This document shows, piece by piece, positions 8,178-21,980 of a DNA stretch of 64,000 nt. A model generated the notes under the pieces. That model saw nothing but the letters and a program-made list of their open reading frames with translations. It made no database searches and was not told the origin of the DNA. The stretch comes from an uncultured Candidatus Saccharibacteria bacterium. GTDB taxonomy: Bacteria > Patescibacteriota > Saccharimonadia > CAILAD01 > GCA-016700035. The number at the start of each line of letters is the position of its first letter. Position 1 is the first letter of the stretch. The stretch lies in assembly GCA_964535385.1 (NCBI GenBank), contig CAZHSY010000003.1, forward strand, positions 18,529 through 82,528. The letters are read 5' to 3'. Both the position numbers and the translations under genes were made by a program.

Positions 8178-8804
8178 CTACTCACCTTCTCCTGTGTAAA
8201 CCCAAGCCTTTACGCCGATGATGCCATAGGTGGTATTGGCTTCGGCGGTAGCGTAGCTAATCTTGGCCCGAATGGTATGCAGCGGAATGCTACCGAGAGC
8301 GACTTGTTCACGACGAGCCATATCAGCTCCGTTCAGGCGTCCAGAAACAGCTACTTTCACGCCCAGGGCGCCAGCTTTCATGCTGTTTTCGGCGGTGTTT
8401 TTCAGAACTCGACGAAACGGCATACGACGCTCAAGCTGGCTCGCGATATTATTAGCAACTAGTTGAGCCTCCAGGTCCGGCTGGCGAATTTCTTCAATAT
8501 TAACACGCATCTTGCCGCTAACGATTTTTGACAATGACTTCTTGAGAGCTTCAGCGCCAGAGCCACCTCGACCAATCACCACACCTGGTTTGGCAGTAAA
8601 GATAGAGATGATGGTTTCACCAGTATTGCGCTCAATCTCTACCTGGGCCACGCTAGCCCGAAAACCAAGCTGCTCGCCAATAGTCTTTCTGATCAGAAGG
8701 TCTTCTTTAAGAAGATCTTTAAAGCCACGCTTGGCGAACCAGCGACTCCGCCACTGACGATCAGCCTGCAAACGCATTGAGATTGGATTGATTTTTTGTC
8801 CCAT
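8178..8804 (-). CDS. rpsC: 30S ribosomal protein S3
   Basis: 208-aa ORF beginning [12 protein letters not shown] with KH and S3-C domains. Confidence 0.95.
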
Positions 8805-10688: not shown

Positions 10689-11335
10689 TTGGCAGTTCCT
10701 TTGATGGTGGGTGCTAACCAGGTGCTCAGTGTTTCAAGAGAATCCTTACTGAGCAACACAACATCAGCATTCATGATGGCATAGACGGTTAGACTCTGAG
10801 TAGGGATTACAGCTACGGTTTGTATATTACTCACAGCCTGTCGGGTCTTCATAGAAACGGTATTACCCACTACCAAGACTTTGCCAGTCAATTTTAGCTT
10901 ATCGATAAAAGCTACAGCGTCCTTGGTCTTGCCAGAAGTAATTTCAAAATCTTCAATCACCTGAATACCACTGTGCTCGACCTTAAGCGACAGAGCCTGA
11001 GCAATACTGGTACGAATCGCTTTCTTCGGCAATGTAATAGAGTAGTTTTCTTCGCCAGTTGGACCAAAGATCGTACCGCCACCGCGCCAGAGTGGGTTAC
11101 GAGTACTGCCACTACGAGCTCGGCCGGTGCCTTTTTGGCGAAATGGCTTCTTGCCACCACCACTAATGAGGCCACGAGTTTTGGTCTGGGCATTAGATTG
11201 GCGCTGGTTAGCCAAAGTACGGTTGTAAGCAGTCTTGATGAGTTCTGGCGTTACTTCACGACCGAATACAGCCTTATCAAGCGTAGCTTCAGTGGTGGCC
11301 TTGGTGCCACTTTTAGTAAAAGTTGGAACCTTCAT
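10685..11335 (-). CDS. rplD: 50S ribosomal protein L4
   Basis: 216-aa ORF resembling L4, in the S10-operon position. Confidence 0.93.
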   Translation of the reverse strand: MKVPTFTKSGTKATTEATLDKAVFGREVTPELIKTAYNRTLANQRQSNAQTKTRGLISGGGKKPFRQKGTGRARSGSTRNPLWRGGGTIFGPTGEENYSITLPKKAIRTSIAQALSLKVEHSGIQVIEDFEITSGKTKDAVAFIDKLKLTGKVLVVGNTVSMKTRQAVSNIQTVAVIPTQSLTVYAIMNADVVLLSKDSLETLSTWLAPTIKGTAK

Positions 11336-11952
11336 CGGGTACTTCCTTGAATAAGAATTAAGCCTTTACGAGGACCAGGTACGGCACCCTTAATCGCAAT
11401 GAGGTTTTTGGCTGGATCAATCTGTATAACACGAAGGTTCTGAACGGTAACATTGTCATGACCCATACGACCGGCCATTTTCATACCCTTCATGACGTGC
11501 TGTGGATAACCAGCACCGATCGAGCCAGGCGCTCGGTAATTGTGAGAGCCATGAGTCTTCGGGCCACGATGGAAATTATGACGCTTAATCGTACCAGCAA
11601 AGCCTTTACCTTTACTGATACCGCTAACGACTACCTTATCGCCAATTTCAAAATTCTCAACCGTGATGGTGTCGCCGACCTTAAGGGCTCCGTCTGGCTC
11701 AACTTCAGTGGTTCTAACTTCTCGAATAGTCTTGGAGTGAGCACCACTGGTTTTGAGGTGACCAGCCTTGGACTTGCCAATCTTCTTATCTTCACCATAG
11801 CCAATTTGAGTCGCGCTGTAGCCATCGGTCTCGATAGTTTTAATCTGCGTAACCACACATGGACCAGCCTGCAACACAGTAACTGGCTGCAAGCGACCTT
11901 GGTCGTTATAGAGTTGGGTCATGCCCACTTTTTTAGCAAGAATAGCTTTCAT
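11332..11952 (-). CDS. rplC: 50S ribosomal protein L3
   Basis: 206-aa ORF beginning MKAILAKKVGMTQ, a typical L3 N-terminus. Confidence 0.95.
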   Translation of the reverse strand: MKAILAKKVGMTQLYNDQGRLQPVTVLQAGPCVVTQIKTIETDGYSATQIGYGEDKKIGKSKAGHLKTSGAHSKTIREVRTTEVEPDGALKVGDTITVENFEIGDKVVVSGISKGKGFAGTIKRHNFHRGPKTHGSHNYRAPGSIGAGYPQHVMKGMKMAGRMGHDNVTVQNLRVIQIDPAKNLIAIKGAVPGPRKGLILIQGSTR

Positions 11953-12065
11953 AGAGTTTTTGATTATGCGCTTCTCAAAAGAAACGCTGGCAAGCGCGGG
12001 ACCGGTTTCCCACCTTCTGGAGGGACCTGGGCGCTTCCCAGAACTTTCATAAAGTCAACTTAAAT

Positions 12066-12094
12066 AGTCTACAGGTTATTACCAGGAGTGTCAA
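12066..12094 (-). promoter_or_regulatory. Candidate sigma-70-type promoter for rplC (TTGACA-N17-TAGACT in the minus sense), followed by a structured 5' UTR of about 110 nt
   Basis: Found by reading the reverse complement of 12062–12094. The UTR contains nested GC-rich inverted repeats (GAAGCGC…GCGCTTGCC). Confidence 0.4.
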
Positions 12095-12202
12095 CCCAGA
12101 ATATAAACTTCTGATCCATCTATTACTAATTATTGACTCGTACTAAAATTAATGTTTGAATAGTATGGTTATACGTCATTGCTCAATCATAAAGGAGCCC
12201 CC

Positions 12203-12589
12203 TTGAGCACCCAGACAGAGCACCTCGCCATCGATTTCGCTCATCCCCTCATCGTGCGTTGCGAAAACGGCGTGCCGGTACACATCGTCATGACCGTTTG
12301 CGATGGAACTGACTCGCGCATCAAGTACCCAGTCTACCTGAAGGACGAACATCCGGCCATCGAAAGCATCGTCAACAAACTGACGCTCGATCGCCTCGGC
12401 CGCAATATCCATCTCATGGGCCCGATCACGGTCAATGCCGACAACCCCCAGGATCTCCTTCGGCGACTGCGCAACCAGGTGCAGGACAACTTCAAGACCG
12501 TCAACCAACTCCCTCAGACCGATGCTCGCATCAACCGCATCATCGACTATGTCAGGTTGGCCCTGGAGCGCTTCTTCCCCGAGGCTTGA
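12203..12589 (+). CDS. Hypothetical protein (128 aa) in a higher-GC insertion between rpsJ and rplC
   Basis: TTG start preceded by AAGGAG with 5-nt spacing. The ORF-track start is 12179. GC is about 56% by eye, against about 50% in the flanking genes. An intrinsic terminator follows. No family was recognised. Confidence 0.55.
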   Translation: MSTQTEHLAIDFAHPLIVRCENGVPVHIVMTVCDGTDSRIKYPVYLKDEHPAIESIVNKLTLDRLGRNIHLMGPITVNADNPQDLLRRLRNQVQDNFKTVNQLPQTDARINRIIDYVRLALERFFPEA

Positions 12590-12605
12590 GCAAGCCTCAT
12601 TCCCT

Positions 12606-12643
12606 GCCACCTCCACCCCGTGTGAAGGTGGCGCATTTTTTTT
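12606..12643 (+). terminator. Intrinsic terminator (stem GCCACCT/AGGTGGC followed by T8)
   Basis: Hairpin plus a T-run directly after the plus-strand ORF. Confidence 0.6.
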
Positions 12644-12660
12644 ACTAAAAAACTCTCGCT

Positions 12661-12872
12661 CGCGTACATTCTGGTACGGTGTCGATCCTACCTGGCGGTA
12701 AAGGGTTCTTCTGAGTGATGCTAGGTAATAAACCTCCTAAACTGGAAAAGGCCTGTTTAGGAGAATGCTGCAATAGACAAACAGAAAAGCAGATCGTAAG
12801 GCGTACATGGTGGTACGGTGTCGATCTGCTTTTCTAGTTTAACGACTTACAGCGCCTGATATAACAGGCCGA
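12661..12872. repeat. Structured intergenic repeat, copy C1, lying between the rpsJ stop and the insertion
   Basis: Contains two GCGTAC-N6-GGTACGGTGTCGATC cores, at 12661–12686 and 12799–12824. Block GGGTTCTTCTGAGTGATGCTAGGT lies at 12702–12725. A perfect 12-bp inverted repeat (GAAAAGCAGATC/GATCTGCTTTTC) flanks the second core. An outer inverted repeat is GGCCTGTT/AACAGGCC. Aligns block-for-block with C2. Confidence 0.7.
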
Positions 12873-12875
12873 AAG

Positions 12876-13196
12876 TTACATTTTGATTTCAATATCCACG
12901 CCGGCTGGCAGCGACAAATTCATAAGGTTATCAATGGTCTTCGGAGTCGGTTCGGTGATATCAATCAACCGCTTGTGGGTTCGCATCTCAAAGGTCTCTT
13001 GGCTGTCTTTGAAAATGTGCGGGCTACGCACCACGGTAGTGGTGTTGCGATCAGTTGGTAGCGGTACGGGGCCAGCGACTTGAGCGCCGGTCCGTACGGC
13101 TGTATCAATGATCTGCTTAGCTGACTGATCAATGACCTTGTTGTCATAGGCCTTGAGTCGGATGCGAATGCGTTGAGCGGTTTTTTCGTTCGGCAT
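12876..13196 (-). CDS. rpsJ: 30S ribosomal protein S10
   Basis: 106-aa ORF resembling S10. It starts 5 nt after the tuf stop. Confidence 0.95.
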
Positions 13197-13201
13197 AGTG
13201 T

Positions 13202-14383
13202 TTACTTGGTGATCTTGGTCACGACACCAGCACCAACGGTGCGGCCGCCTTCACGAATCGCGAAGTTCAGACCATCATCCATGGCGATTGGAGCCAAGAG
13301 CTTGATTGAAGCGTTAATGTTATCACCTGGCATAACCATCTTAGTACCTTCTGGAAGCTTAACTTCACCAGTTACATCGGTGGTACGGAAGTAGAACTGT
13401 GGCTTGTAACCGTCTACGAAAGGAGTGTGGCGTCCGCCTTCTTCCTTAGTCAAGACGTAGATTTCAGCCTCAAACTCGGTGTGAGGAGTAATCGAGCCTG
13501 GCTTAACGATAACCTGACCACGCTCAATCTGTGAACGCTCAATACCACGGAGGAGGAGACCAACGTTATCACCGGCTTGACCCTCGTCAAGCAACTTACG
13601 GAACATCTCAACACCAGTTACGGTAGTCTTCTGTGTGTCCTTGATGCCGACAATTTCTACTTCTTCGTTGACCTTCACGATACCAGTCTCGATCTTACCG
13701 GTCGCAACAGTACCACGGCCTTTGATCGAGAAGACGTCTTCGATTGGCATCAAGAATGGCTTATCGAGATCACGCTTTGGCTCTTCGAAGAAGTCATCCA
13801 TAGCCTTCACGAGTTCCATAATTGAGTCCTCAGCAGCTTCATCGCCTTCGAGAGCCTTCAAGGCAGAACCCTTAACGATAGGGGCATTCTCGTCGAAGCC
13901 GTTCTTCTCGAGCAATTCACGAATTTCCATCTCTACGAGTTCAGCCAATTCTGGATCAGCCATGTCCATCTTGTTCATGTAGACCATGATGGCTGGTACG
14001 CCAACTTGGCGAGCCAAGAGAACGTGCTCACGAGTCTGAGGCATAGGGCCATCAGCAGCTGATACCACGAGGATAGCACCATCAACCTGAGCTGCACCGG
14101 TGATCATGTTCTTCACATAGTCGGCGTGACCTGGCATATCAACGTGAGCGTAGTGACGCTTGTCTGATTCGTATTCCTGGTGAGAAGTAGCGATGGTAAT
14201 ACCGCGCTCGCGCTCTTCTGGAGCCTTGTCGATCTCGTCGTAATTAATTGGTTTGTTTACGTCTGATGGCAACCGCTTAGCCAAAACGTGGGTAATGGCA
14301 GCAGTTAAGGTAGTCTTACCATGGTCAACATGCCCCATAGTACCGACGTTTACGTGTGGTTTGCTGCGATCAAAATTTGCCAC
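13202..14383 (-). CDS. tuf: Elongation factor Tu
   Basis: 393-aa ORF with [17 protein letters not shown] and NKMD motifs. Confidence 0.97.
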
Positions 14384-14503
14384 GAATGTTTCTCCTTAAC
14401 TCTCAATATATTTTCTTATGATTTGCTTAAAGCCTGGTGGTCACCGAAAAATGACCTGCAAGGCAAGCAGGACTGGTCTAGTATATCGAGAAAACTATGA
14501 CTT

Positions 14504-14537
14504 GTAAAGGGCAAAATGTCGCCGGATTTAACTCGGG
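14504..14537. terminator. Bidirectional hairpin (AAATGTCGCC…GGCGACATTT flanked by A and T runs) between fusA and tuf; possible attenuator
   Basis: Perfect 10-bp stem with a 13-nt loop, flanked by AAAA on one side and TTTTT on the other. Confidence 0.4.
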
Positions 14538-14579
14538 CGACATTTTTCAGCACGACAGACACGCTACGGTGCATCTCGT

Positions 14580-16688
14580 CTATTCAGAGACGGCTGACTT
14601 ACCACTCTTGCCGATGAGTTCTTCGGCAATATTACGTGGAACTTCTGCGTAGTGATCAAATTCCATCGAGTAGTTGGCTCGCCCCTGAGTCATCGAACGC
14701 AAGGTCGTCGCATAGCCAAACATCTGCGAAAGTGGCACGAAGGCATCGATAATCTTAGCGCCCTGGCGATCAGACATCTGCTCGATACGGCCACGCTTGG
14801 AGTTAACATCACCAACCACGTCACCCATGAATTCTTCTGGGGTTGTTACCTCAACCTTCATAACTGGCTCGAGAATGACTGGGTCAGCCTTACGTACACC
14901 AGCTTGAAGTGCTAATGAACCAGCAATCTTAAAGGCCATTTCTGATGAGTCAACTTCGTGATACGAACCGTCATAAAGCTTGGCCTTGACGTCAACGACT
15001 GGGTATCCAGCCAAGACACCATTACCCATGGCTTCCTTAATGCCCTCATCGACTGGCTTAATGTATTCACGCGGCACAGCTCCACCAACGATAGCGTTTT
15101 CAAATTCATAGGTTGGCTTATCACCTTCAACGTCATCAGCATGTACGAGTGGGCAAATTTCGAGCCAGACATGACCATACTGACCACGGCCACCAGACTG
15201 ACGAACAAATTTACCTTCGGCTTCAACGGTCTTACGGATGGTTTCGCGATAAGCCACTTGCGGAGTACCGATATTAGCTTCAACCTTGAACTCACGCTTC
15301 ATCCGGTCAACCAGTACGTCGAGGTGCAGCTCGCCCATACCGGCGATCAAGGTTTGGCCGGCTTCGTTATCAGAGCTAACTCGGAAGGTTGGGTCTTCTT
15401 CAGCCAAACGAGATAGAGCCAGCGACATTTTCTCTTGGTCAGCCTTGGTCTTTGGCTCAACAGCAATCTGAATAACTGGCTCTGGGAAGGTAATTTGCTC
15501 GAGAATAACTGGGTGGCCCTCAGCACTTAAGGTGTGTCCAGTCATGGTGTTTTTGAGACCAACAGCGGCAGCAATTTCACCGGCGTAGACTTCTTGGACT
15601 TCTTCGCGATTATTGGCGTGCATACGCAAGATACGGCCAATTCGCTCCTTCTGCCCGGTAGAGCTATTGAGTACATATGAGCCGGACTTTAACGTCCCAG
15701 CGTATACCCGGAAGAAACAGAGCTTACCAACAAATGGGTCGGTAGCAATCTTGAAGGCCAGACCAGCAAATGGAGCATCATCGGCTACTTTAAGTACTTC
15801 TTGTTCGCCGGTCTTCTCGTTCTCAGCCAAGGGCGGCGTGATATCCAGCGGGTTTGGCAGATAGTCAACCACGATGTCGAGTAACTTCTCAACGATCACG
15901 CCACGTCCATCACCACCAGAAACGATGAAAAATTCACCAGTCAAAACGCTCTTGCGAATGACTGATTTGATTTCTTCTAAGGTTAATTCACCACCTTCAA
16001 GGTATTTTTCGAGGAGGCTGTCATCGATCTCAACAGCAGCTTCAATCAAATGATTACGGTAGCGCTCGACCTTTTCTTTCATGTCTTCAGGGATGTCGAT
16101 CTCAACCAGTTCTTTATCGGTGTAGTCTTTATAGCTATAGGCTTTTTGCTCAATGACATCGATGATGCCGTTGATTTCTTGCTCAAAACCGATTGGCAAG
16201 TGGATTGGGTAAGCCCGCTTGGTCAAACGTGCATGAATCGAGTCCAGACTCTTGTAGAAGTCGCCACCGGTCTGGTTAATCTTATTGATGAAGCAGATAC
16301 GTGGCACGCCATACTTATCAGCCTGACGCCAAACGGTCTCGGATTGTGGCTCAACACCCATCTTGCCGTCGAAGACGGTCACTGCACCGTCCAGGACACG
16401 CAGGGAACGCTCGACTTCAACAGTAAAGTCGATGTGGCCAGGAGTATCAATGATATTGATGCGCTTGCCGTTCCAGAAACAAGTCGTGGCTGCAGAAGTG
16501 ATCGTAATACCCCGTTCTTGTTCTTGTTCCATCCAGTCCATAGTTGCCTCACCCTGGTGCACTTCGCCAATCTTGTGGGTTTTTCCAGTGCGATACAAGA
16601 CGCCTTCCGTAACGGTAGTTTTACCGGCATCAATGTGAGCAATAATTCCAATATTTCGGGTATCTTCGAGAGAATATTCGCGGGCCAT
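14580..16688 (-). CDS. fusA: Elongation factor G
   Basis: 702-aa ORF with a GTPase domain (AHIDAGKTT) and EF-G domains II to V. Confidence 0.97.
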
Positions 16689-16913
16689 AGTGTTCCTACT
16701 TATGCTTTAAAAATGATAGTCAAATTGACGAAAAAATAAGCGCGAACAAGCGCTTGTTACGTGTATTTTACCAGGTTGACCACTTCCACGCAATGCTACT
16801 CATGAAAAGGCTATTGACAGATATACGCTAGGAAAGTATGATCTGGTTCCCAGAAGACAACAGGGTTAACTGGTGTGCTCCGTACATCGGAATATTGAAC
16901 GAGGAGTAACCTC

Positions 16914-17267
16914 ATGCGTACCAAGACAAGTAAGCAATTTCGACTCCTCGCCGTCGCCATCATGGCGACGCTCGGCGGACTGACCTTCGGGGTCAGCAAC
17001 GCTGGTGCGGCGAGCAGCTTCCTCAGGAATGACAAGTGGCTGGCGGTCTACTCGCCTGCCTGTGGTGCCATCGGCTGCCCCTATGGTCCGGGCTATATGG
17101 TCAAGGACAATACGGGATTCACGATGGTGTGCTGGGCAGATGGCCCCTGGGTGAACGGCAACTACAACACCAACCGCTGGTTCCGTGGCCGTGTCAACGG
17201 CATCAGTGGTCAGGTCTGGGTCCCGGCATCCTACGTCTTCAATCAGACGCGAGTCGGCCACTGCTGA
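16914..17267 (+). CDS. Small secreted Cys-containing protein (117 aa), possibly SH3b-like
   Basis: N-terminal signal peptide (MRTKTSKQFRLLAVAIMATLGGLTFGVSNAGAASS). The mature part has Cys and Gly/Trp-rich segments ending …GQVWVPASYV, reminiscent of bacterial SH3 domains. A GAGGAG ribosome-binding site precedes it. GC is about 58% by eye. Confidence 0.6.
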   Translation: MRTKTSKQFRLLAVAIMATLGGLTFGVSNAGAASSFLRNDKWLAVYSPACGAIGCPYGPGYMVKDNTGFTMVCWADGPWVNGNYNTNRWFRGRVNGISGQVWVPASYVFNQTRVGHC

Positions 17268-17275
17268 TCAACACG

Positions 17276-17322
17276 AGGCTTCTTGTGTGTTCTTTCTCGG
17301 ACACACAAGAAGCCTTTTCTAA
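17276..17322 (+). terminator. Strong intrinsic terminator (14-bp perfect stem AGGCTTCTTGTGTG/CACACAAGAAGCCT followed by TTTCT)
   Basis: Lies directly after the plus-strand ORF and abuts the 3' end of the AAA+ gene. Confidence 0.7.
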
Positions 17323-17323
17323 T

Positions 17324-19774
17324 CTACGAGGCATCGACTTGCACGAGATCTTCTTTCGAAATTGTAATTAGTTGTCCTGACTTGATCTGACCGGCCAGCA
17401 TCCGCTGCGCAATTACATCTTCCACAAACCGCTGAAGAGCTCGTCGCATCGGTCGAGCACCCATACGTGGATCATTTCCCTTTTCGACCATGAAAGCTAG
17501 CGCCTCAGGAGTCATGGCGACTGTGATGTGTCGACTAGCAAGTTGTTTATTAAGGTTCTGCAGCTGAATACCAACTACCTGCTGAAGTTCCTCCGGTTTA
17601 AGTGGGCGGAACATCGTAATGTCATCAAAACGGTTTAAGAGTTCTGGGCGGAACAGCTTCTGGGATATAACCAAGTCGATCAAAGCATCATGTTTGGTCT
17701 CGAGCTCAACCCCATCGCTCACCCACTGCCGGATCTGCTCTGCACCGGCATTGGAGGTGGCAATAATGATAGCTTCTTTAAAGCTAACAACCTTGCCAGC
17801 AGTGTCAGTTAAGCGACCTTCATCGAGCATTTGAAGTAAGAGATTAAGGAAGTCAGGATGGGCCTTCTCAATCTCATCCAGCAGCACGACGCTGGCGGGT
17901 TTCATTCGAACCTGTTCGAGGAAGGCTGACCCAGCTGAGGTCTCGGCGGCGGCATTCAGTAAGCGATTGATATCACTCGGGTTCTGATACTCTGACATAT
18001 CTAGGCGGATCATGTTTTGCTCATCACTAAAGTACACAGCCGCCAGTGATCGAGCCAACTCGGTCTTACCAACACCAGTCGGGCCAAGAAAAAGAAAACT
18101 ACCAACCGGTCGCTTGGGGTCGCGCACTCCAGTCCGAGCTCGCCGCAAGGAAGACGCCACAGCTTTGACAGCCGTATTTTGGTTGATCATACGCTCATGA
18201 ATTAAATCCTCGAGCTTAAGTAGGGTCTGAGCCTCATTACTGCCCTGCTCAACAACTCCAGTCTTAACACCCGTACGGCTCTCGACGGCCTGATTGACTG
18301 ATTGTTCAGTAACTCTGCCTTCGACAGCATAATTTAAACTACTCATGAGCAAGTCAATCGCTCGACCCGGTTGAGCTTTTTCACCCAAGAAGCGATTCGA
18401 CAGCTCAATAGCTTGCTTGAGCGCCCGATAGGTGATGACTAGGCGGTGTTGGTTCTCAAAATCAAAGGCCACGTCCTGAAGGATCTGAAAACAAAGCTCG
18501 TCGGTCACTTCTGGCAACTGCAATTTATTAAGCATTCCGACCAGCTGGCCGTTGATCTGGGCGAATCGAGTCCATTCTTCATCGGTAAAACCAAAGATCA
18601 TTGGCAAGTGCGTTTTTTCTACGATTGGCTGCAAAATCCGAGTTGCATCAATGGCTCCAGGTTTATTTTCGAAGAACAAACTGGCATCTTCAAAGTACAG
18701 GATGACATTCTTAGCTCGCACAGCGTCATTCATCATTTTTGTGAAGATCGCTTCGACAGATTCATTCTTACCAGCACTGGTAATGGCCGTGGCTGAAACC
18801 GACATCATCTTGCGATAGGTCAACTTACCCGCCGGCATACCGGTGAGGATCTTCTCGGCAAACCGATACACCAACGTCGTCTTACCGCTGCCAGTGGCGC
18901 CGATCAGAGCCACATTGGTGCGGGCTGGCTGATTGAGTAATTGCACAAACTGATCAAGCATCTCCTCGCGACCATAAGCCGAGAAGCTCCGATGGCCAGC
19001 TTCAATCTCGTCGGATAGATTTGCTGCGAACTGGTCAAGATAATTAGTATAGCCAGCTGCGAAGTCGCGACCAATTCCACCAAAGCTCTCTCGAGCCCGA
19101 CGCTCTAAGCGATCGCGCTCGATATGCTCAAGCCAGTTCAAACCAAATACCAGATCTTGTTCGGAGATCTCAAAAGTCCCCAGCCAACCGGGCTGTTCAC
19201 GCTCTACTTCTAAGAGGCCGGCTACAAGAATCGTGCCACCATTAATGAACTGACTACCCACCCGCTGCATCAGCGAGCCACTCAAGCTGTAGAGCTGATC
19301 AGGGGTAAGCTTAGTAATGACAGCCGCGGCCGCTTGTAACGTCTGATCTGTTAGCTCCAAGTGCGATATAACATAGTGCGCCTGCCATGTGCCTTGAGCA
19401 GCCTGCCAGATGGCATTTACATCACTGTGTCGTGACAGGCGCACGGTGAGCTCAGGTGATAATACATCGGGAATATTGGTCATATTGCGCCGCGCTAGCC
19501 AGTCTGGCCCGAACTGATCGAGGCCCCAGCTGGAATAAAGTCCCAACATCGCGATCGGAGCACCAGGTACAAGCAATAAGATCGCGATCTTCTGGCCAAG
19601 TAGATACCCCATGACAGCCGTCAGCCATAGTAGTCCACCAATCACCAGTAGAGCCGTATGTAAAACCGGCGACATGAGTGAATGCATAGCCTTTAGCCGC
19701 CGGCGTCTAGCCGAGCTCTGCCAGCTGAGCTGCGGGGTGGCTTGATTCGGGGTCGCATTGACTGTTTGATCCAT
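17324..19774 (-). CDS. Membrane-anchored two-domain Hsp100/Clp-like AAA+ ATPase (about 816 aa)
   Basis: Two N-terminal transmembrane helices. D1 has Walker A GATGSGKT and an altered Walker B (ILYFED). D2 has Walker A GPTGVGKT, Walker [14 protein letters not shown], sensor-1 IIIATSN and the GARPMRRA arginine-finger region. By eye there is no IGF/LGF ClpP-docking loop and no GYVGY pore loop. The start is chosen at the Met whose ATG overlaps the upstream gene's TAA (TAATG). The ORF-track start is 19834. Confidence 0.8.
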   Translation of the reverse strand: MDQTVNATPNQATPQLSWQSSARRRRLKAMHSLMSPVLHTALLVIGGLLWLTAVMGYLLGQKIAILLLVPGAPIAMLGLYSSWGLDQFGPDWLARRNMTNIPDVLSPELTVRLSRHSDVNAIWQAAQGTWQAHYVISHLELTDQTLQAAAAVITKLTPDQLYSLSGSLMQRVGSQFINGGTILVAGLLEVEREQPGWLGTFEISEQDLVFGLNWLEHIERDRLERRARESFGGIGRDFAAGYTNYLDQFAANLSDEIEAGHRSFSAYGREEMLDQFVQLLNQPARTNVALIGATGSGKTTLVYRFAEKILTGMPAGKLTYRKMMSVSATAITSAGKNESVEAIFTKMMNDAVRAKNVILYFEDASLFFENKPGAIDATRILQPIVEKTHLPMIFGFTDEEWTRFAQINGQLVGMLNKLQLPEVTDELCFQILQDVAFDFENQHRLVITYRALKQAIELSNRFLGEKAQPGRAIDLLMSSLNYAVEGRVTEQSVNQAVESRTGVKTGVVEQGSNEAQTLLKLEDLIHERMINQNTAVKAVASSLRRARTGVRDPKRPVGSFLFLGPTGVGKTELARSLAAVYFSDEQNMIRLDMSEYQNPSDINRLLNAAAETSAGSAFLEQVRMKPASVVLLDEIEKAHPDFLNLLLQMLDEGRLTDTAGKVVSFKEAIIIATSNAGAEQIRQWVSDGVELETKHDALIDLVISQKLFRPELLNRFDDITMFRPLKPEELQQVVGIQLQNLNKQLASRHITVAMTPEALAFMVEKGNDPRMGARPMRRALQRFVEDVIAQRMLAGQIKSGQLITISKEDLVQVDAS

Positions 19775-20139
19775 TACAAACCTGCAATCCCTAGTGCAAT
19801 GGCAATAAAAGGTATAATTGGAAAGACTAGCCAAAGCACAAACAGCACACTAGCCGCCAGAAACAGTAGCGCTGTGCCCATAAGCCAAGCGACAATAAAG
19901 ATCATTCGGATAATAAATCCGATCAAGCGGGCTACTAGATTCATAACCATGGCTTGCATCATCTGATCTATGCCCTGACCGCCTTCGACCCGGTCTTCTT
20001 TCCATGGCGCGAAGAGTGTACGTAGCATCTGCTTCACACTTAAGCTGTAGTACAGTTTTCGGGTACTATCTTTGGCAGACTGCAAGACATGCAGCCAGCC
20101 CGGTCCGTACCACCAGGTAAGCATATCCGTTATCAGCAT
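19774..20139 (-). CDS. Small membrane protein (121 aa) with two C-terminal transmembrane helices, translationally coupled to the AAA+ ATPase
   Basis: Soluble N-terminal region of about 70 aa followed by two hydrophobic helices. Its stop overlaps the AAA+ start by 1 nt. Confidence 0.6.
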   Translation of the reverse strand: MLITDMLTWWYGPGWLHVLQSAKDSTRKLYYSLSVKQMLRTLFAPWKEDRVEGGQGIDQMMQAMVMNLVARLIGFIIRMIFIVAWLMGTALLFLAASVLFVLWLVFPIIPFIAIALGIAGL

Positions 20140-20184
20140 GATTCTATTTTACACGAGCTCGAGTTTTAGTACAGATAGCACTAC

Positions 20185-20212
20185 AAAAAGAAAACCCCCT
20201 ATTGCTAGGGGG
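20185..20212 (-). terminator. Intrinsic terminator in the minus sense (stem CCCCCTA/TAGGGGG followed by a U-run)
   Basis: Overlaps the stop codon of the small Cys-rich protein gene. In the minus sense the stem is followed by TTTTCTTTTT. Confidence 0.6.
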
Positions 20213-20525
20213 TGATAGATCGAGCTAGTTCGGTCGCAACAATACGACGAGGCAGCTTGTTGCCACGTGGCAGTCGCCACGGCTGAGTGCTGAGGTAATC
20301 ACCGTGAGGCTTTCCCAGTGCTTCGTAGCACTCCTCGTGATAGTGTTCAACTCGGTCCCAACGTGGTTGGTCGTTTGAGTCACGAACGTAGATGTTGCAA
20401 ATGGCTTGGCGCCGTTTGACCTTGGCCCTGAATTTCACACGCTCACCACAGTGAGCACAGTTGACAGTGCTGCCAGCTTCGATCATGCGTAGGACGGCTC
20501 GCGTCCTGGGCTGTGTTGCCGTCAT
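20205..20525 (-). CDS. Small Cys-rich (CxxC-containing) protein, 106 aa
   Basis: Cys/His pattern (CAHCGERV…C…HYHEEC). It lies immediately downstream of rpsG. GC is about 55% by eye. Confidence 0.55.
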   Translation of the reverse strand: MTATQPRTRAVLRMIEAGSTVNCAHCGERVKFRAKVKRRQAICNIYVRDSNDQPRWDRVEHYHEECYEALGKPHGDYLSTQPWRLPRGNKLPRRIVATELARSITP

Positions 20526-20630
20526 GGACGTGAGTTCCTTTCGCTTATTCCTGATGTTCAGGTTTTGCTATATTACAACTTTTATTAAATTAATGCAATA
20601 GATGAACGCTGAGCAGAGACTTTCTAGATC

Positions 20631-20850
20631 ATAAAAGGCCCGTTTAGCAGGATGTTGTAGTAGGCAAAACAAAAACCGGATCTAAGACATGCTCTAAACA
20701 AATAAGTCTGATTATCCTCGCGGCCAAGACCAGTTTAGCGAAATGCTCCGCTAGGCTTAACCAAAAACTCCTCGTAAGGCGTACTTTAACGTACGGTGTC
20801 GAGGAGTTTTTGGTGTAAACGACGCTGAGCGTTCGATATAACTGGTCGCT
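20631..20850. repeat. Structured intergenic repeat, copy C2, directly after the rpsG stop
   Basis: 5' block AAAAGGCCCGTTTAGCAGGATGTTGTAGTAGGCAAAACAAAAACCGGATC aligns with C1. A 14-bp perfect inverted repeat (CCAAAAACTCCTCG/CGAGGAGTTTTTGG, 20761–20814) encloses the core GTAAGGCGTACtttaacGTACGGTGTCGA. The 3' block TAAACGAC…GATATAACTGGTCG aligns with C1. Confidence 0.7.
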
Positions 20851-20852
20851 GT

Positions 20853-21329
20853 CTAGTAACGGGCGAAGTGGGCGAAGGCGCGATTAGCCTCAGCCATCTG
20901 GTGCGTATCTTGTTTCTTCTTAATAGCATCGCCCTGATTGTTGTAAGCATCGAGAAGCTCATTAGCTAGCAAGATATCAAAGCTCTTGCCTTCCTTACGA
21001 CGAGCCGAGTCGAGCATCCAGATCATAGCGTAGTGAATCTTGCGATCTGGTTTCACTTCCATTGGAACTTGGTAATTTGCACCACCAACACGGCGAGAAC
21101 GAACTTGTACATTTGGGCTAGCATTCTTAACTGCACCTTCAAAGACTTCCATAGGATCCTTCTTAGCCTTCGTGGCGGCCTGATCGAGAGCTGCATATAC
21201 CAAGCGCTCAGCCGTACGCTTCTTGCCTTCTTTCATAACTTTATTAATCATACGAGTAACCAGTACTGAGTTGTACTGCAAGTCTGGCTTGAGTTGACGC
21301 TTGAGAGAAGCGGTTTTCTTACGTGGCAT
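20853..21329 (-). CDS. rpsG: 30S ribosomal protein S7
   Basis: 158-aa ORF resembling S7. Confidence 0.95.
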   Translation of the reverse strand: MPRKKTASLKRQLKPDLQYNSVLVTRMINKVMKEGKKRTAERLVYAALDQAATKAKKDPMEVFEGAVKNASPNVQVRSRRVGGANYQVPMEVKPDRKIHYAMIWMLDSARRKEGKSFDILLANELLDAYNNQGDAIKKKQDTHQMAEANRAFAHFARY

Positions 21330-21332
21330 AGT

Positions 21333-21755
21333 TTAGTCCTTCTTGCCCTTTTCGAGCTTAGCGCCGTACTTACTGCGACCCTGTTTACGCTGAGCTACAC
21401 CAGCAGTGTCAAGGCTACCACGTACTACGTGATAACGAACACCAGGAAGGTCCTTAACACGACCACCACGCACCAAGACCACACTGTGCTCCTGGAGGTT
21501 GTGACCGATACCGCCGATATAGGCAGTAACTTCCATACCATTTACCAAACGGACACGAGCAACTTTACGAAGCGCTGAGTTAGGCTTCTTTGGGGTCTGG
21601 GTGAAAACCTTCGTACACACACCGCGCTTAAATGGGTTAGCAGTTGTCGTAGCCTTACCTTTCAGGGCGTTGGTGGTCCGCATCAAAGCTGGGGCCTTAC
21701 TCTTAGAAGTGGCCTGCTTACGGGGTTTGCGAATGAGTTGATTGATTGTTGGCAT
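21333..21755 (-). CDS. rpsL: 30S ribosomal protein S12
   Basis: 140-aa ORF with conserved …KRGVCTKV…[16 protein letters not shown]… It carries an N-terminal insertion of about 10 aa relative to E. coli S12. Confidence 0.95.
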
Positions 21756-21864: not shown

Positions 21865-21980
21865 GGGTCTTTTTGAGTGATGCTGGGTGCCGGCGTAGTT
21901 CTGAATGATTCTGAGGCGTACATGATAGTACGGTGAGGGATCATTCAGAACGCACAACGGTGCCCAGCGCGCTCAAAATG
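21865..21980. repeat. Structured intergenic repeat, copy C3: a nested hairpin of about 115 nt between rpoC and rpsL
   Basis: Outer stem GGGTCTTTTTGAGTGATGCTGGGTGCCG pairs with CGGTGCCCAGCGCGCTCAAAA, using G·U pairs. Inner perfect 12-bp stem GTTCTGAATGAT/ATCATTCAGAAC. The loop carries the core GAGGCGTACatgataGTACGGTGAGGG. No U-tract follows on either strand. Confidence 0.7.

Follow-up and report, generated by a model that had tools for sequence, protein, structure and literature searches.

The rpsJ-rplC junction of Saccharibacteria as a probable boundary between two transcription units, with an accessory-gene slot and a putative autoregulatory rplC leader

Genes and expression signals at the junction

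This study concerns the junction between the S10 gene, rpsJ, and the L3 gene, rplC, in a 64,000-nucleotide (nt) stretch of DNA from an uncultured Candidatus Saccharibacteria bacterium (contig CAZHSY010000003.1, positions 18,529 to 82,528; hereafter, the window). Genes were called and placed from a list of open reading frames (ORFs) and by direct reading of the sequence, and the ribosomal genes are all on the minus strand. The EF-Tu gene tuf (13202-14383), the first gene of its unit according to the ORF list and a promoter scan, is followed after only 5 nt (ACACT, 13197-13201) by rpsJ (12876-13196; 106 amino acids, aa), which was recognized as Pfam Ribosomal_S10 on an identical Logan contig. 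A spacer of 923 base pairs (bp; 11953-12875) then separates rpsJ from rplC (11332-11952; present in the ORF list and on an identical Logan contig), after which come rplD, rplW, rplB and further genes. Both distances had been given in an earlier note on this DNA and were reproduced by direct reading. Among genomes, S10 is matched best (82% identity) by that of an uncultured Candidatus Saccharibacteria metagenome-assembled genome (MAG), L3 homologs at 63-75% identity carry the NCBI name Candidatus Saccharibacteria, and an L3 identical to that of the window is also present on an NCBI contig and in Logan assemblies.

Because the 5-nt junction leaves no space for a promoter or a terminator, tuf and rpsJ are predicted to be co-transcribed, and their translation is probably coupled. 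The promoter scan placed a promoter-like site, TTTACA-N17-TATACT, upstream of tuf (14508-14480, minus strand) and downstream of a terminator-like hairpin that comes after fusA, and the distance from rpsG to fusA is approximately 4 kilobases (kb), with other genes between them. These features indicate that the unit is tuf-rpsJ and not str. The earlier note had assigned S10 to a str/tuf transcription unit; its coupling to tuf and its uncoupling from L3 stand, and its place in str does not.

At the other end of this unit, rpsJ is followed by a 64-nt hairpin (12778-12841, minus strand; free energy (dG) -28.7 kcal/mol, z score -10.5), which belongs to repeat family D2 and is the predicted rpsJ terminator. 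It consists of a 13-14 bp outer stem and an apical core, ACACCGUAC-N6-GUACGCCUUA, followed by a U-rich tail, and the A-run and U-run flanking the stem suggest that it may be bidirectional. A canonical intrinsic terminator is located directly 3' of rpsJ in 12 of the 15 relatives that were read. The repeat, GCGTAC-N6-GTACGGTGTCGA, occurs at 12662, 12801, 20779 and 21916, four matches where 0.01 are expected by chance, so that the repeat reported earlier in the gap is real, with two copies there and two elsewhere. The second copy in the gap (GCGTACATTCTGGTACGGTGTCGATC, 12662-12687, plus strand) has no clear outer stem and lies between the rpsJ terminator and the terminator of the ORF described below.

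The rest of the spacer contains two sets of signals facing away from each other. A promoter for the rplC operon, TTGACA-N17-TAGACT (12094-12066, minus strand; 10 of 12 consensus matches in the scan), is followed by a 5' leader of about 107 nt (11953-12059, minus strand), whose start was placed from the position of the -10 box. On the plus strand, a 128-aa ORF with a TTG start (12203-12589) is preceded at 5 nt by the Shine-Dalgarno sequence AAGGAG (12192-12197, direct reading) and followed by an intrinsic terminator (12605-12643; hairpin 12605-12633, U8 12636-12643; dG -16.2 kcal/mol, z score -4.2), as the earlier note had described. Direct reading gave a candidate promoter for this ORF as well, TTGACT-N17-TTGAAT (12133-12161, plus strand), which is below the threshold of the generic scan; it points away from the rplC promoter, and 38 bp separate the two -35 boxes.

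Conservation of the split among relatives

We examined whether this arrangement is shared by using 80 metagenome loci fetched by L3 (52-76% identity), in each of which tuf, rpsJ, rplC and rplD were located. Closer relatives (contigs L083/L084, L166-168, L170 and L171) were obtained via a protein index. A genome scan based on S10 was also made; S10 is too conserved for this purpose, and all but one of its 80 loci came from other phyla; these 79 were reused as controls. In these 79 control genomes, mostly Actinomycetota, the gap between rpsJ and rplC was approximately 16-64 nt (median 28), in agreement with the premise that the two genes are normally adjacent, and the gap between tuf and rpsJ was 45-3864 nt (median 307). 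Among the metagenome loci, in contrast, the rpsJ-rplC gap was 207-3034 bp in all 36 loci with both genes, and several loci with 4 kb of upstream sequence had no rpsJ within 4 kb of rplC. The same split was observed in L166/L167 (L3 identity 84%), in L168 (85%) and in L170, an NCBI-named Saccharibacteria MAG (74%), and in another such MAG, L171 (65%), there was no rpsJ within 4 kb of rplC. None of the loci compared has an empty site with rpsJ and rplC adjacent.

The closest of these relatives, L083/L084, have an L3 that is 92% identical to that of the window and an rpsJ-rplC gap of 916 bp, and EF-Tu of L083 is 98% identical. The earlier note had allowed for relatives with the same spacing and a conserved, annotated gene in it; an orthologous gene on the opposite strand is present in the gap of L083/L084, although it is unannotated, with no Pfam hit and no source name.

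Because gaps of at least 207 bp in the relatives stand against 16-64 nt in the controls, the split is lineage-wide in Saccharibacteria and old, an operon boundary shifted by one gene and not a recent event in the window genome. The proposal that a 923-bp insertion had rewired this particular genome was dropped for the same reason, since no related contig with both genes has a gap shorter than 207 bp.

Where L3 is at least 61% identical, rpsJ begins less than about 40 nt after tuf, and 207 bp or more separate it from rplC. In the more distant loci (L109-L164, L3 identity 52-59%), rpsJ was found approximately 60-800 nt after tuf and 228-2686 nt before rplC. Thus, rpsJ stands alone in more distant Saccharibacteria, detached on both sides, in line with another report, in which tuf and rpsJ of N. 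lyticus TM7x each supplied a promoter of its own (PMC10633639). The sole Saccharibacteria genome from the S10 scan (L001, 4310-6519) has tuf-rpsJ followed by an opposite-strand ORF of 151 aa, and no rplC was found in the remaining 2.2 kb of its contig; when considered as a relative of the 128-aa gene, the 151-aa gene proved to be unrelated.

Other lineages also have S10 next to the elongation factor gene. Cyanobacteria and plastids have the order tufA-rps10. In Archaea, uS10 is always independent of uL3-uL4-uL23, and the cluster ends with S12-S7-(fusA)-EF1a-S10 (PMC10833476). The Saccharibacteria gene order parallels this archaeal arrangement, as S10 lies directly after the EF-Tu/EF-1a gene and apart from L3. 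The likeness is partial: the present organism is a bacterium, its str cluster is fragmented (rpsG, about 4 kb, fusA, tuf-rpsJ), and the distant Saccharibacteria have rpsJ apart from tuf too.

Structure and distribution of the rplC leader

The computed fold of the full rplC leader has a dG of -38 kcal/mol (z score -2.8) and contains a long irregular hairpin, the conserved motif (11970-12043, minus strand), which is matched by the covariance models described below with 61-66 bits (E value 2e-11 to 3e-13). Its helix P1 is CUGG-G-AAGCGC / GCGCUU-G-CCAG, and its core is AGGUC-[variable stem-loop]-GAAACC with the AA bulged, followed 3' of the hairpin by a U-rich tract, UUUCUUUU. A second small hairpin in the leader, CGUUUCUU/GAGAAGCG, overlaps the U tract. 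The RNAalifold consensus of 12 sequences consists of a basal helix CUG/CAG, a second helix AAGC/GCUU, a variable helix, the near-invariant core, in which GG of AGGUC pairs with CC of GAAACC and UC with GA while AA is bulged, and a variable apical stem-loop, with the U-rich tract 3' of the hairpin. The minimum free energy folds of the window and L083 leaders match this consensus. The U-rich tract is present in nearly all members of the motif, and the unpaired or bulged nucleotides of the core (AGGUC, AA bulge, ACC) are almost invariant, while the flanking stems covary freely.

A covariance model made from 12 sequences (R1) gave 15 further matches, all of them on the rplC strand and within approximately 100 nt upstream of the L3 start. 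Its second iteration (R2) matched 67 of 83 sources (65 of the 80 metagenome relatives), with a median distance of 42 nt to the L3 start downstream, and no match away from the rplC leader was obtained in 506 kb. Six of the 15 unmatched metagenome loci have less than 100 nt of upstream sequence, and three loci unmatched by R2 (L096, L098 and L100) have a visibly related variant of the leader. In addition, R2 matched five contigs outside the training set, L166-168, L170 and L171, with E values of 1e-5 to 1e-11. With filters off, the motif was found once in the window, and no significant match was found in 618 kb of the 80 control tuf-rpsJ-rplC loci. For the base pairs of the model, 92-93% of the cells were paired and 15 of the 17 pairs had double-sided changes, whereas sliding the 3' partners out of register left 21-47% paired; the observed covariation score was reached by none of 500 shuffles.

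These results indicate that the rplC leader is a real conserved RNA structure, with the position in the 5' untranslated region, the location on the strand of the gene and the covariation that are generic to ribosomal-protein leaders. The promoter is likewise conserved: TTGACA and a TAnAnT box were found upstream of rplC in the relatives inspected, over the whole range of L3 identity. The earlier note had pointed to a promoter and structured leader for rplC in this gap; both are there, and the leader is conserved in relatives.

A search of Rfam 15 with cmscan over 11900-12900 yielded nothing relevant, whether at the gathering threshold or with E values up to 10, and a literature search for ribosomal-protein leaders in Saccharibacteria or in the Candidate Phyla Radiation (CPR) found no paper linking them within the library searched. 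As a separate observation, a string GUUGACU is conserved at approximately +5 to +12 of the predicted rplC transcript, 5' of the hairpin motif (window 12040-12059, minus strand; L083 and L086-L089). It looks like a second -35 box, with no matching -10 box.

The orphan gene and the slot that it occupies

The 128-aa ORF has one true homolog, P0001 (120 aa, E value 1e-37), according to an exhaustive phmmer search of 1.8 billion cluster representatives, which returned a spurious repeat protein besides. P0001 is encoded in L083 and L084 at the same place and in the same orientation as the 128-aa gene. Its surroundings in L083 include an equivalent candidate promoter (TTGACT-N17-TTTAAT) and an equivalent terminator with the same CCACCUC/GAGGUGG stem (dG -17.3 kcal/mol, z score -5.5). 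Between the window and L083, the gene has an amino acid identity of 61% and a nucleotide identity of 62.5%, with proportions of non-synonymous (pN) and synonymous (pS) differences of 0.25 and 0.78, the latter saturated, and over the same distance L3, L4, S10 and EF-Tu have a ratio of non-synonymous to synonymous rates (dN/dS) of 0.015-0.04. Compared with a 93%-identical strain (L169), 19 differences were found, of which 11 are synonymous and 8 non-synonymous in the plus frame (approximate dN/dS 0.24). The earlier note had asked whether this ORF carries a coding signal, and conservation, the excess of pS over pN and the synonymous bias against L169 all provide one.

NCBI, Logan and ENA gene calls annotate an antisense ORF of 146 or 154 aa instead (window 12176-12616, minus strand; L081 1508-1948; L169 559-1023), so it might be supposed that the plus-strand ORF is no gene and that the real gene is the 146-aa ORF on the ribosomal strand, or that the region is non-coding. 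The choice made by three sets of gene callers is what speaks for this possibility. Against it, only fragments of 63, 41 and 45 aa are left of the antisense frame in L083, and the differences from L169 look neutral in that frame (5 synonymous, 14 non-synonymous). Moreover, the GC content by codon position (0.61/0.34/0.77) fits the plus frame, and ribosome-binding site, promoter and terminator all serve the plus strand. We therefore regard an antisense gene or a non-coding region as extremely improbable. Given the ortholog, the synonymous bias and the broken antisense frame, the plus-strand ORF is the genuine gene, a fast-evolving orphan, and the long antisense ORF is a by-product of the high GC content at third codon positions (GC3) in the true frame. 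As a result of the public calls, the real 128-aa protein is absent from protein collections, and the spurious antisense protein forms a cluster of its own.

The GC content of the ORF as a whole is 0.57, as the earlier note had indicated in calling it a high-GC gene. This excess is concentrated in the third codon positions of the window copy: its GC3 of 0.77 is more than 4 standard deviations (sd) above that of 46 window genes (mean 0.50, sd 0.06), whereas GC3 of the L083 ortholog is 0.57.

The protein is predicted to be cytoplasmic, with an isoelectric point of 6.5. An AlphaFold2 model built from two sequences only is moderately confident (pLDDT 76, pTM 0.68); in it, four beta strands form a sheet in the N-terminal part, and three main helices come next. 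No match was found in Pfam or PADLOC, and the best hits in PHROG (E value 0.07) and PDB sequences (0.08) were not significant, while the best in NCBIfam (0.016) was far below the curated cut-off. Foldseek searches with the model gave a best E value of 0.4 with a template modeling (TM) score of at most 0.26 against PDB, and 0.014 with a TM score of 0.25 against BFVD. A word-indexed protein search with the ORF returned nothing, a profile search with the family added no homolog, and the family profile found no relative in JGI metagenome contigs and IMG/VR. A 122-aa protein in the same slot of L168 (L168_122) aligned end to end with the family by hhalign (E value 0.005, 22% identity), and BLASTP of L168_122 against P0001 found nothing; remote homology of this protein is a lead only. 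Our best guess is that the 128-aa protein serves an accessory function in the cytoplasm, specific to this lineage, and has no part in ribosome regulation.

The slot between rpsJ and rplC holds different genes in different relatives, on either strand. Opposite-strand small orphans, mutually different, were found in L086-L089, L168 and L170; a pair of lipoproteins, 72% identical, in L166 and L168 (L166_149 and L168_147); small membrane proteins in L092, L093 and L153; a Nudix-box protein in L109; and a 658-aa repeat protein in L092. The shortest gaps (L097, L101 and L155; 207-271 bp) have no gene. At least three unrelated orphan families occur in the slot in differing combinations. The first is the lipoprotein family (L166_149 and L168_147; regions L168 2319-3733 and L166 3268-3717), the second is a weak family of L086_140, L087_130 and L168_129 (E values 1e-4 to 3e-4), and the third is the 128-aa family (window, L083, L169 and perhaps L168_122). 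Counting L168_122, L168 has all three in tandem on the opposite strand. A single family for all opposite-strand ORFs of the gap had been suspected from a beta-turn-beta, G-x-P look in L086-L089; BLASTP and hhalign show no link of these ORFs to the 128-aa family.

Like other orphan small proteins in intergenic slots of reduced genomes, the 128-aa protein has no homolog beyond the closest relatives, evolves fast and has no recognisable domain, and its gene has its own promoter and terminator. It differs from typical orphans in that it sits at a fixed syntenic position, within the block of genes that is most conserved in the genome, and in its strikingly atypical GC3.

Small proteins divergently transcribed from an operon often regulate that operon, and the back-to-back promoters at this locus, with their -35 boxes 38 bp apart and the layout kept in L083, raise the possibility that the 128-aa protein binds the region between them and regulates the rplC operon. 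Nevertheless, Pfam, NCBIfam, and sequence and fold searches of PDB revealed no DNA-binding domain, other relatives have unrelated genes (lipoproteins, membrane proteins) in the slot, and the protein is fast-evolving (approximate dN/dS 0.24). In particular, because only the closest relatives have the protein, and the promoter and leader occur far more widely, this role is unlikely, and we give it little credence.

A different alternative is that a recent mobile or horizontally acquired insertion of a high-GC gene split a contiguous rpsJ-rplC pair, so that a new rplC promoter had to arise. In its favor are the high GC3 of the ORF relative to neighboring genes (0.77 versus 0.50 +/- 0.06), the repeat copies that adjoin it and the varying gap content among relatives. 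A further point is that the segment of the window between the ORF terminator and rpsJ cannot be aligned with that of L169, the 93%-identical strain. The gap, however, is present in every relative down to 52% L3 identity, and the rplC promoter and leader are conserved over this whole range, indicating that they are older than the 128-aa gene. An ortholog also occupies the same slot in a species with synonymous sites saturated relative to the window. Furthermore, the rpsJ-rplC gap of the window has no integrase or transposase gene, and no target-site duplication was seen flanking the 128-aa gene, both repeat copies being on one side of the ORF. An insertion that created the split is therefore improbable, to about the same degree as the regulatory role above or slightly less so. 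A weaker version, in which the slot already existed and the 128-aa gene, or this allele of it, arrived by recombination or horizontal transfer, is a good deal more plausible, if still somewhat doubtful; a possible source of the GC3 excess is replacement of the allele by that of a GC-richer relative.

Interpretation of the boundary and its leader

The explanation that we favor, and consider likely as a whole, is a boundary between two units typical of Saccharibacteria, with an accessory slot and a putative autoregulatory leader of rplC. It builds on what was observed, namely the order of the genes and their expression signals, the split shared by relatives, the evidence that the ORF is coding, and the fold of the leader together with its restriction to the site before rplC. 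The first unit, tuf-rpsJ, would start from its own promoter upstream of tuf and end at the very stable hairpin after rpsJ, and the second, the ribosomal-protein operon led by rplC, would start from the strongly conserved sigma-70 promoter. The space between them would be a permissive site for small accessory genes that differ from lineage to lineage; in the window and its nearest relatives, it is occupied by the divergently transcribed, fast-evolving 128-aa orphan. Since rplC has its own promoter and structured leader, any L4-type feedback must act at rplC; this consequence, which the earlier note had drawn, was accepted. In the proposed reading, the leader is located at rplC because S10 belongs to the tuf unit in Saccharibacteria.

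The rplC leader is probably an autoregulatory attenuator that responds to a ribosomal protein. The nascent leader would fold into the covarying hairpin with the AGGUC...GAAACC core, followed by the U-rich tract, and a ribosomal protein encoded by the operon, when in excess over free rRNA, would bind the invariant core. Stabilization of the hairpin beside the U tract would then cause premature termination before rplC, or else initiation would be blocked. The leading candidate for the ligand would be L4, by E. coli precedent, with L3, as the product of the nearest gene, second, and the leader would functionally replace the S10 leader of Gammaproteobacteria. In its most specific form, the proposal is that the hairpin represents an undescribed class of ribosomal-protein leader, widespread in Saccharibacteria, that is the counterpart of the E. 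coli S10 leader, senses L4 (or L3) via AGGUC, the AA bulge and ACC, and attenuates the operon; on this form our judgment is evenly divided.

Several points weigh against the favored explanation. Where transcription starts, that it ends at the rpsJ hairpin, that a protein binds the leader and how attenuation would work there are all deduced from the sequence. The leader hairpin is no textbook intrinsic terminator: its base is AU/GU-rich and not GC-rich and ends 2-3 nt before the U tract, and the generic terminator scan flagged only a local 5-bp variant at 11997-11984. In the window and in L083, the U tract can alternatively pair within a small hairpin further downstream, which may indicate a different mechanism, translational or by alternative folds. 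The alignments used for covariation were fitted to the model, so the pairing is somewhat inflated. The leader core gave no significant match to the E. coli rRNA operon (best E values 1.9-6.8), and the GC3 of 0.77 fits a recent foreign origin of this copy of the orphan gene better than a long residence. With regard to the rRNA comparison, mimicry of rRNA by the core was looked for in E. coli rRNA, with no significant match; R2 against the rrnB operon with filters off, a comparison with E. coli rRNA only, had its best local match at 23S nt 1003-1030 (6.8 bits, E value 6.8). The partly matching segment, which we take to be not conserved in B. subtilis, was dropped.

Stable 5' hairpins protect mRNAs, and the leader hairpin could be a constitutive 5' element, that is, an mRNA stabilizer, a processing site or an insulator from upstream transcription, with no protein sensing. 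The lack of detected mimicry of E. coli rRNA and the weak stem base, which is poor for a terminator, would suit such an element. On the other hand, an almost invariant unpaired or bulged core within covarying stems is typical of a specific binding site and not of a generic stabilizer, the U tract is itself conserved, and the position before the ribosomal-protein operon encoding L4 matches that of described leaders (PMC3616713, PMC7247131). A purely constitutive role is thus rather unlikely, and we prefer the autoregulatory attenuator.

The best-known precedent is the S10 operon of E. coli, which L4 controls via the leader, by both termination and translational repression (PMC3616713). Like that leader, the element in the window heads an operon encoding L3, L4, L23, L2, S19, L22, S3 and the following proteins and consists of a long structured hairpin and then a U tract, and by analogy the same logic, in which an excess ribosomal protein leads to termination or repression, would be expected here too. 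The E. coli leader, in contrast, lies directly upstream of rpsJ, with the last of its five hairpins overlapping the start, and is confined to Gammaproteobacteria, whereas the window leader is before rplC and is a single irregular hairpin with a different core, and rpsJ of the window follows tuf after 5 nt without a leader. Homology of the two is unsupported, as no match was obtained in Rfam 15, in which the presence of the E. coli model was unchecked.

Another candidate leader from comparative genomics, the L4 Archaeoglobi motif, is found upstream of rplC-rplD-rplW-rplB (Eckert and Weinberg 2020, PMC7247131), a report that does not mention Saccharibacteria or TM7. Both are covarying structures before an rplC-led operon, with L4 proposed as the ligand by precedent, and they differ in lineage and in structure. 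The different gene, the different architecture and the lack of a covariance-model match set the rplC leader apart from described RNAs, and it appears to belong to no described family.

Significance

The S10 operon is used as a syntenic block of phylogenetic markers, and in Saccharibacteria it is not one unit, S10 being with tuf or alone. The split thus matters for binning, for concatenation of markers and for operon prediction in CPR genomes, and the rpsJ/rplC junction is a hot spot for accessory genes. The comparison also exposed a systematic mis-annotation, in which an antisense ORF is called instead of a real orphan gene, and added a fast-evolving orphan family to the CPR-specific proteins.

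What is most valuable here is the rplC leader. As a candidate ribosomal leader that occurs across Saccharibacteria, it is well supported and apparently not yet catalogued, and it provides a covariation-supported RNA element in a phylum in which almost nothing is known about gene regulation. If it is regulatory as proposed, it would be among the first cis-regulatory RNAs defined for the CPR, and if it binds L4, feedback on the operon would have been re-invented with a different RNA at a different gene. As cultivated and transformable Saccharibacteria exist (PMC10633639), the leader is directly testable in genetically tractable members of the phylum. It is a useful, testable addition for specialists in RNA regulation and the CPR, without being a surprise in kind.

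Additional features of the locus

The str operon of the window is likewise broken (16689-20852). The rpsL-rpsG unit (20853-21755) ends in a terminator, and the approximately 4 kb between it and fusA (14580-16688) contain ORFs of 106, 121, 836 and 131 aa. The 836-aa ORF upstream of fusA encodes a ClpB/ClpA-like AAA+ protein, and the ORFs of 106, 121 and 131 aa had no Pfam match. In L083, an 865-aa ORF without Pfam match and a ClpB-like gene were found upstream of fusA.

The spacer between fusA and tuf (14384-14579, minus strand) contains, in order, the terminator-like hairpin after fusA, AAAAUGUCGCC...GGCGACAUUUU, and the tuf promoter-like site. The tuf leader has a second hairpin and a U run (14471-14455, minus strand), CCUGCUUGCCUUGCAGG UCAUUUUU, which could be another attenuator, and this region and the rplC leader have the strings GCUUGCC and CAGGUC in common.

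The repeat that forms the core of the rpsJ terminator is part of a repeated terminator module, present in the window at 12778-12841, 20762-20822, 21900-21960 and 12662-12687, in L083 at 8560-8610, and in L169 downstream of rpsJ. No Rfam match was found for this hairpin module. The hairpins that end the rpsJ, rpsG and rpoC units have a common apical core, ACAC-CGUAC-N6-GUACG-CCUUA on the RNA strand, and their outer stems differ wholly between copies yet are still complementary. Approximately 100 nt after the stop codons of rpsJ and rpsG are paralogous (GUUAUAUC..GCGCU..GUCGUU..[hairpin]). In L169, the inner stem has a compensatory change from C-G to U-A, and the outer stem of the rpsJ terminator resembles that of the rpsG copy of the window, which suggests exchange between copies. 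Possible roles for the module are a terminator loop to which a protein binds, a cassette that recombines or, in a naturally competent lineage, a signal of the uptake type.

Within the module after rpsJ and rpsG, a plus-strand promoter-like site, TTTAAC/GTAAAC-N16-TATAAC, was also found (12844-12872 and 20824-20850), preceded by TG in the rpsJ copy. It is weak, below the threshold of the generic scan, and would transcribe antisense into the 3' end of the ribosomal gene.

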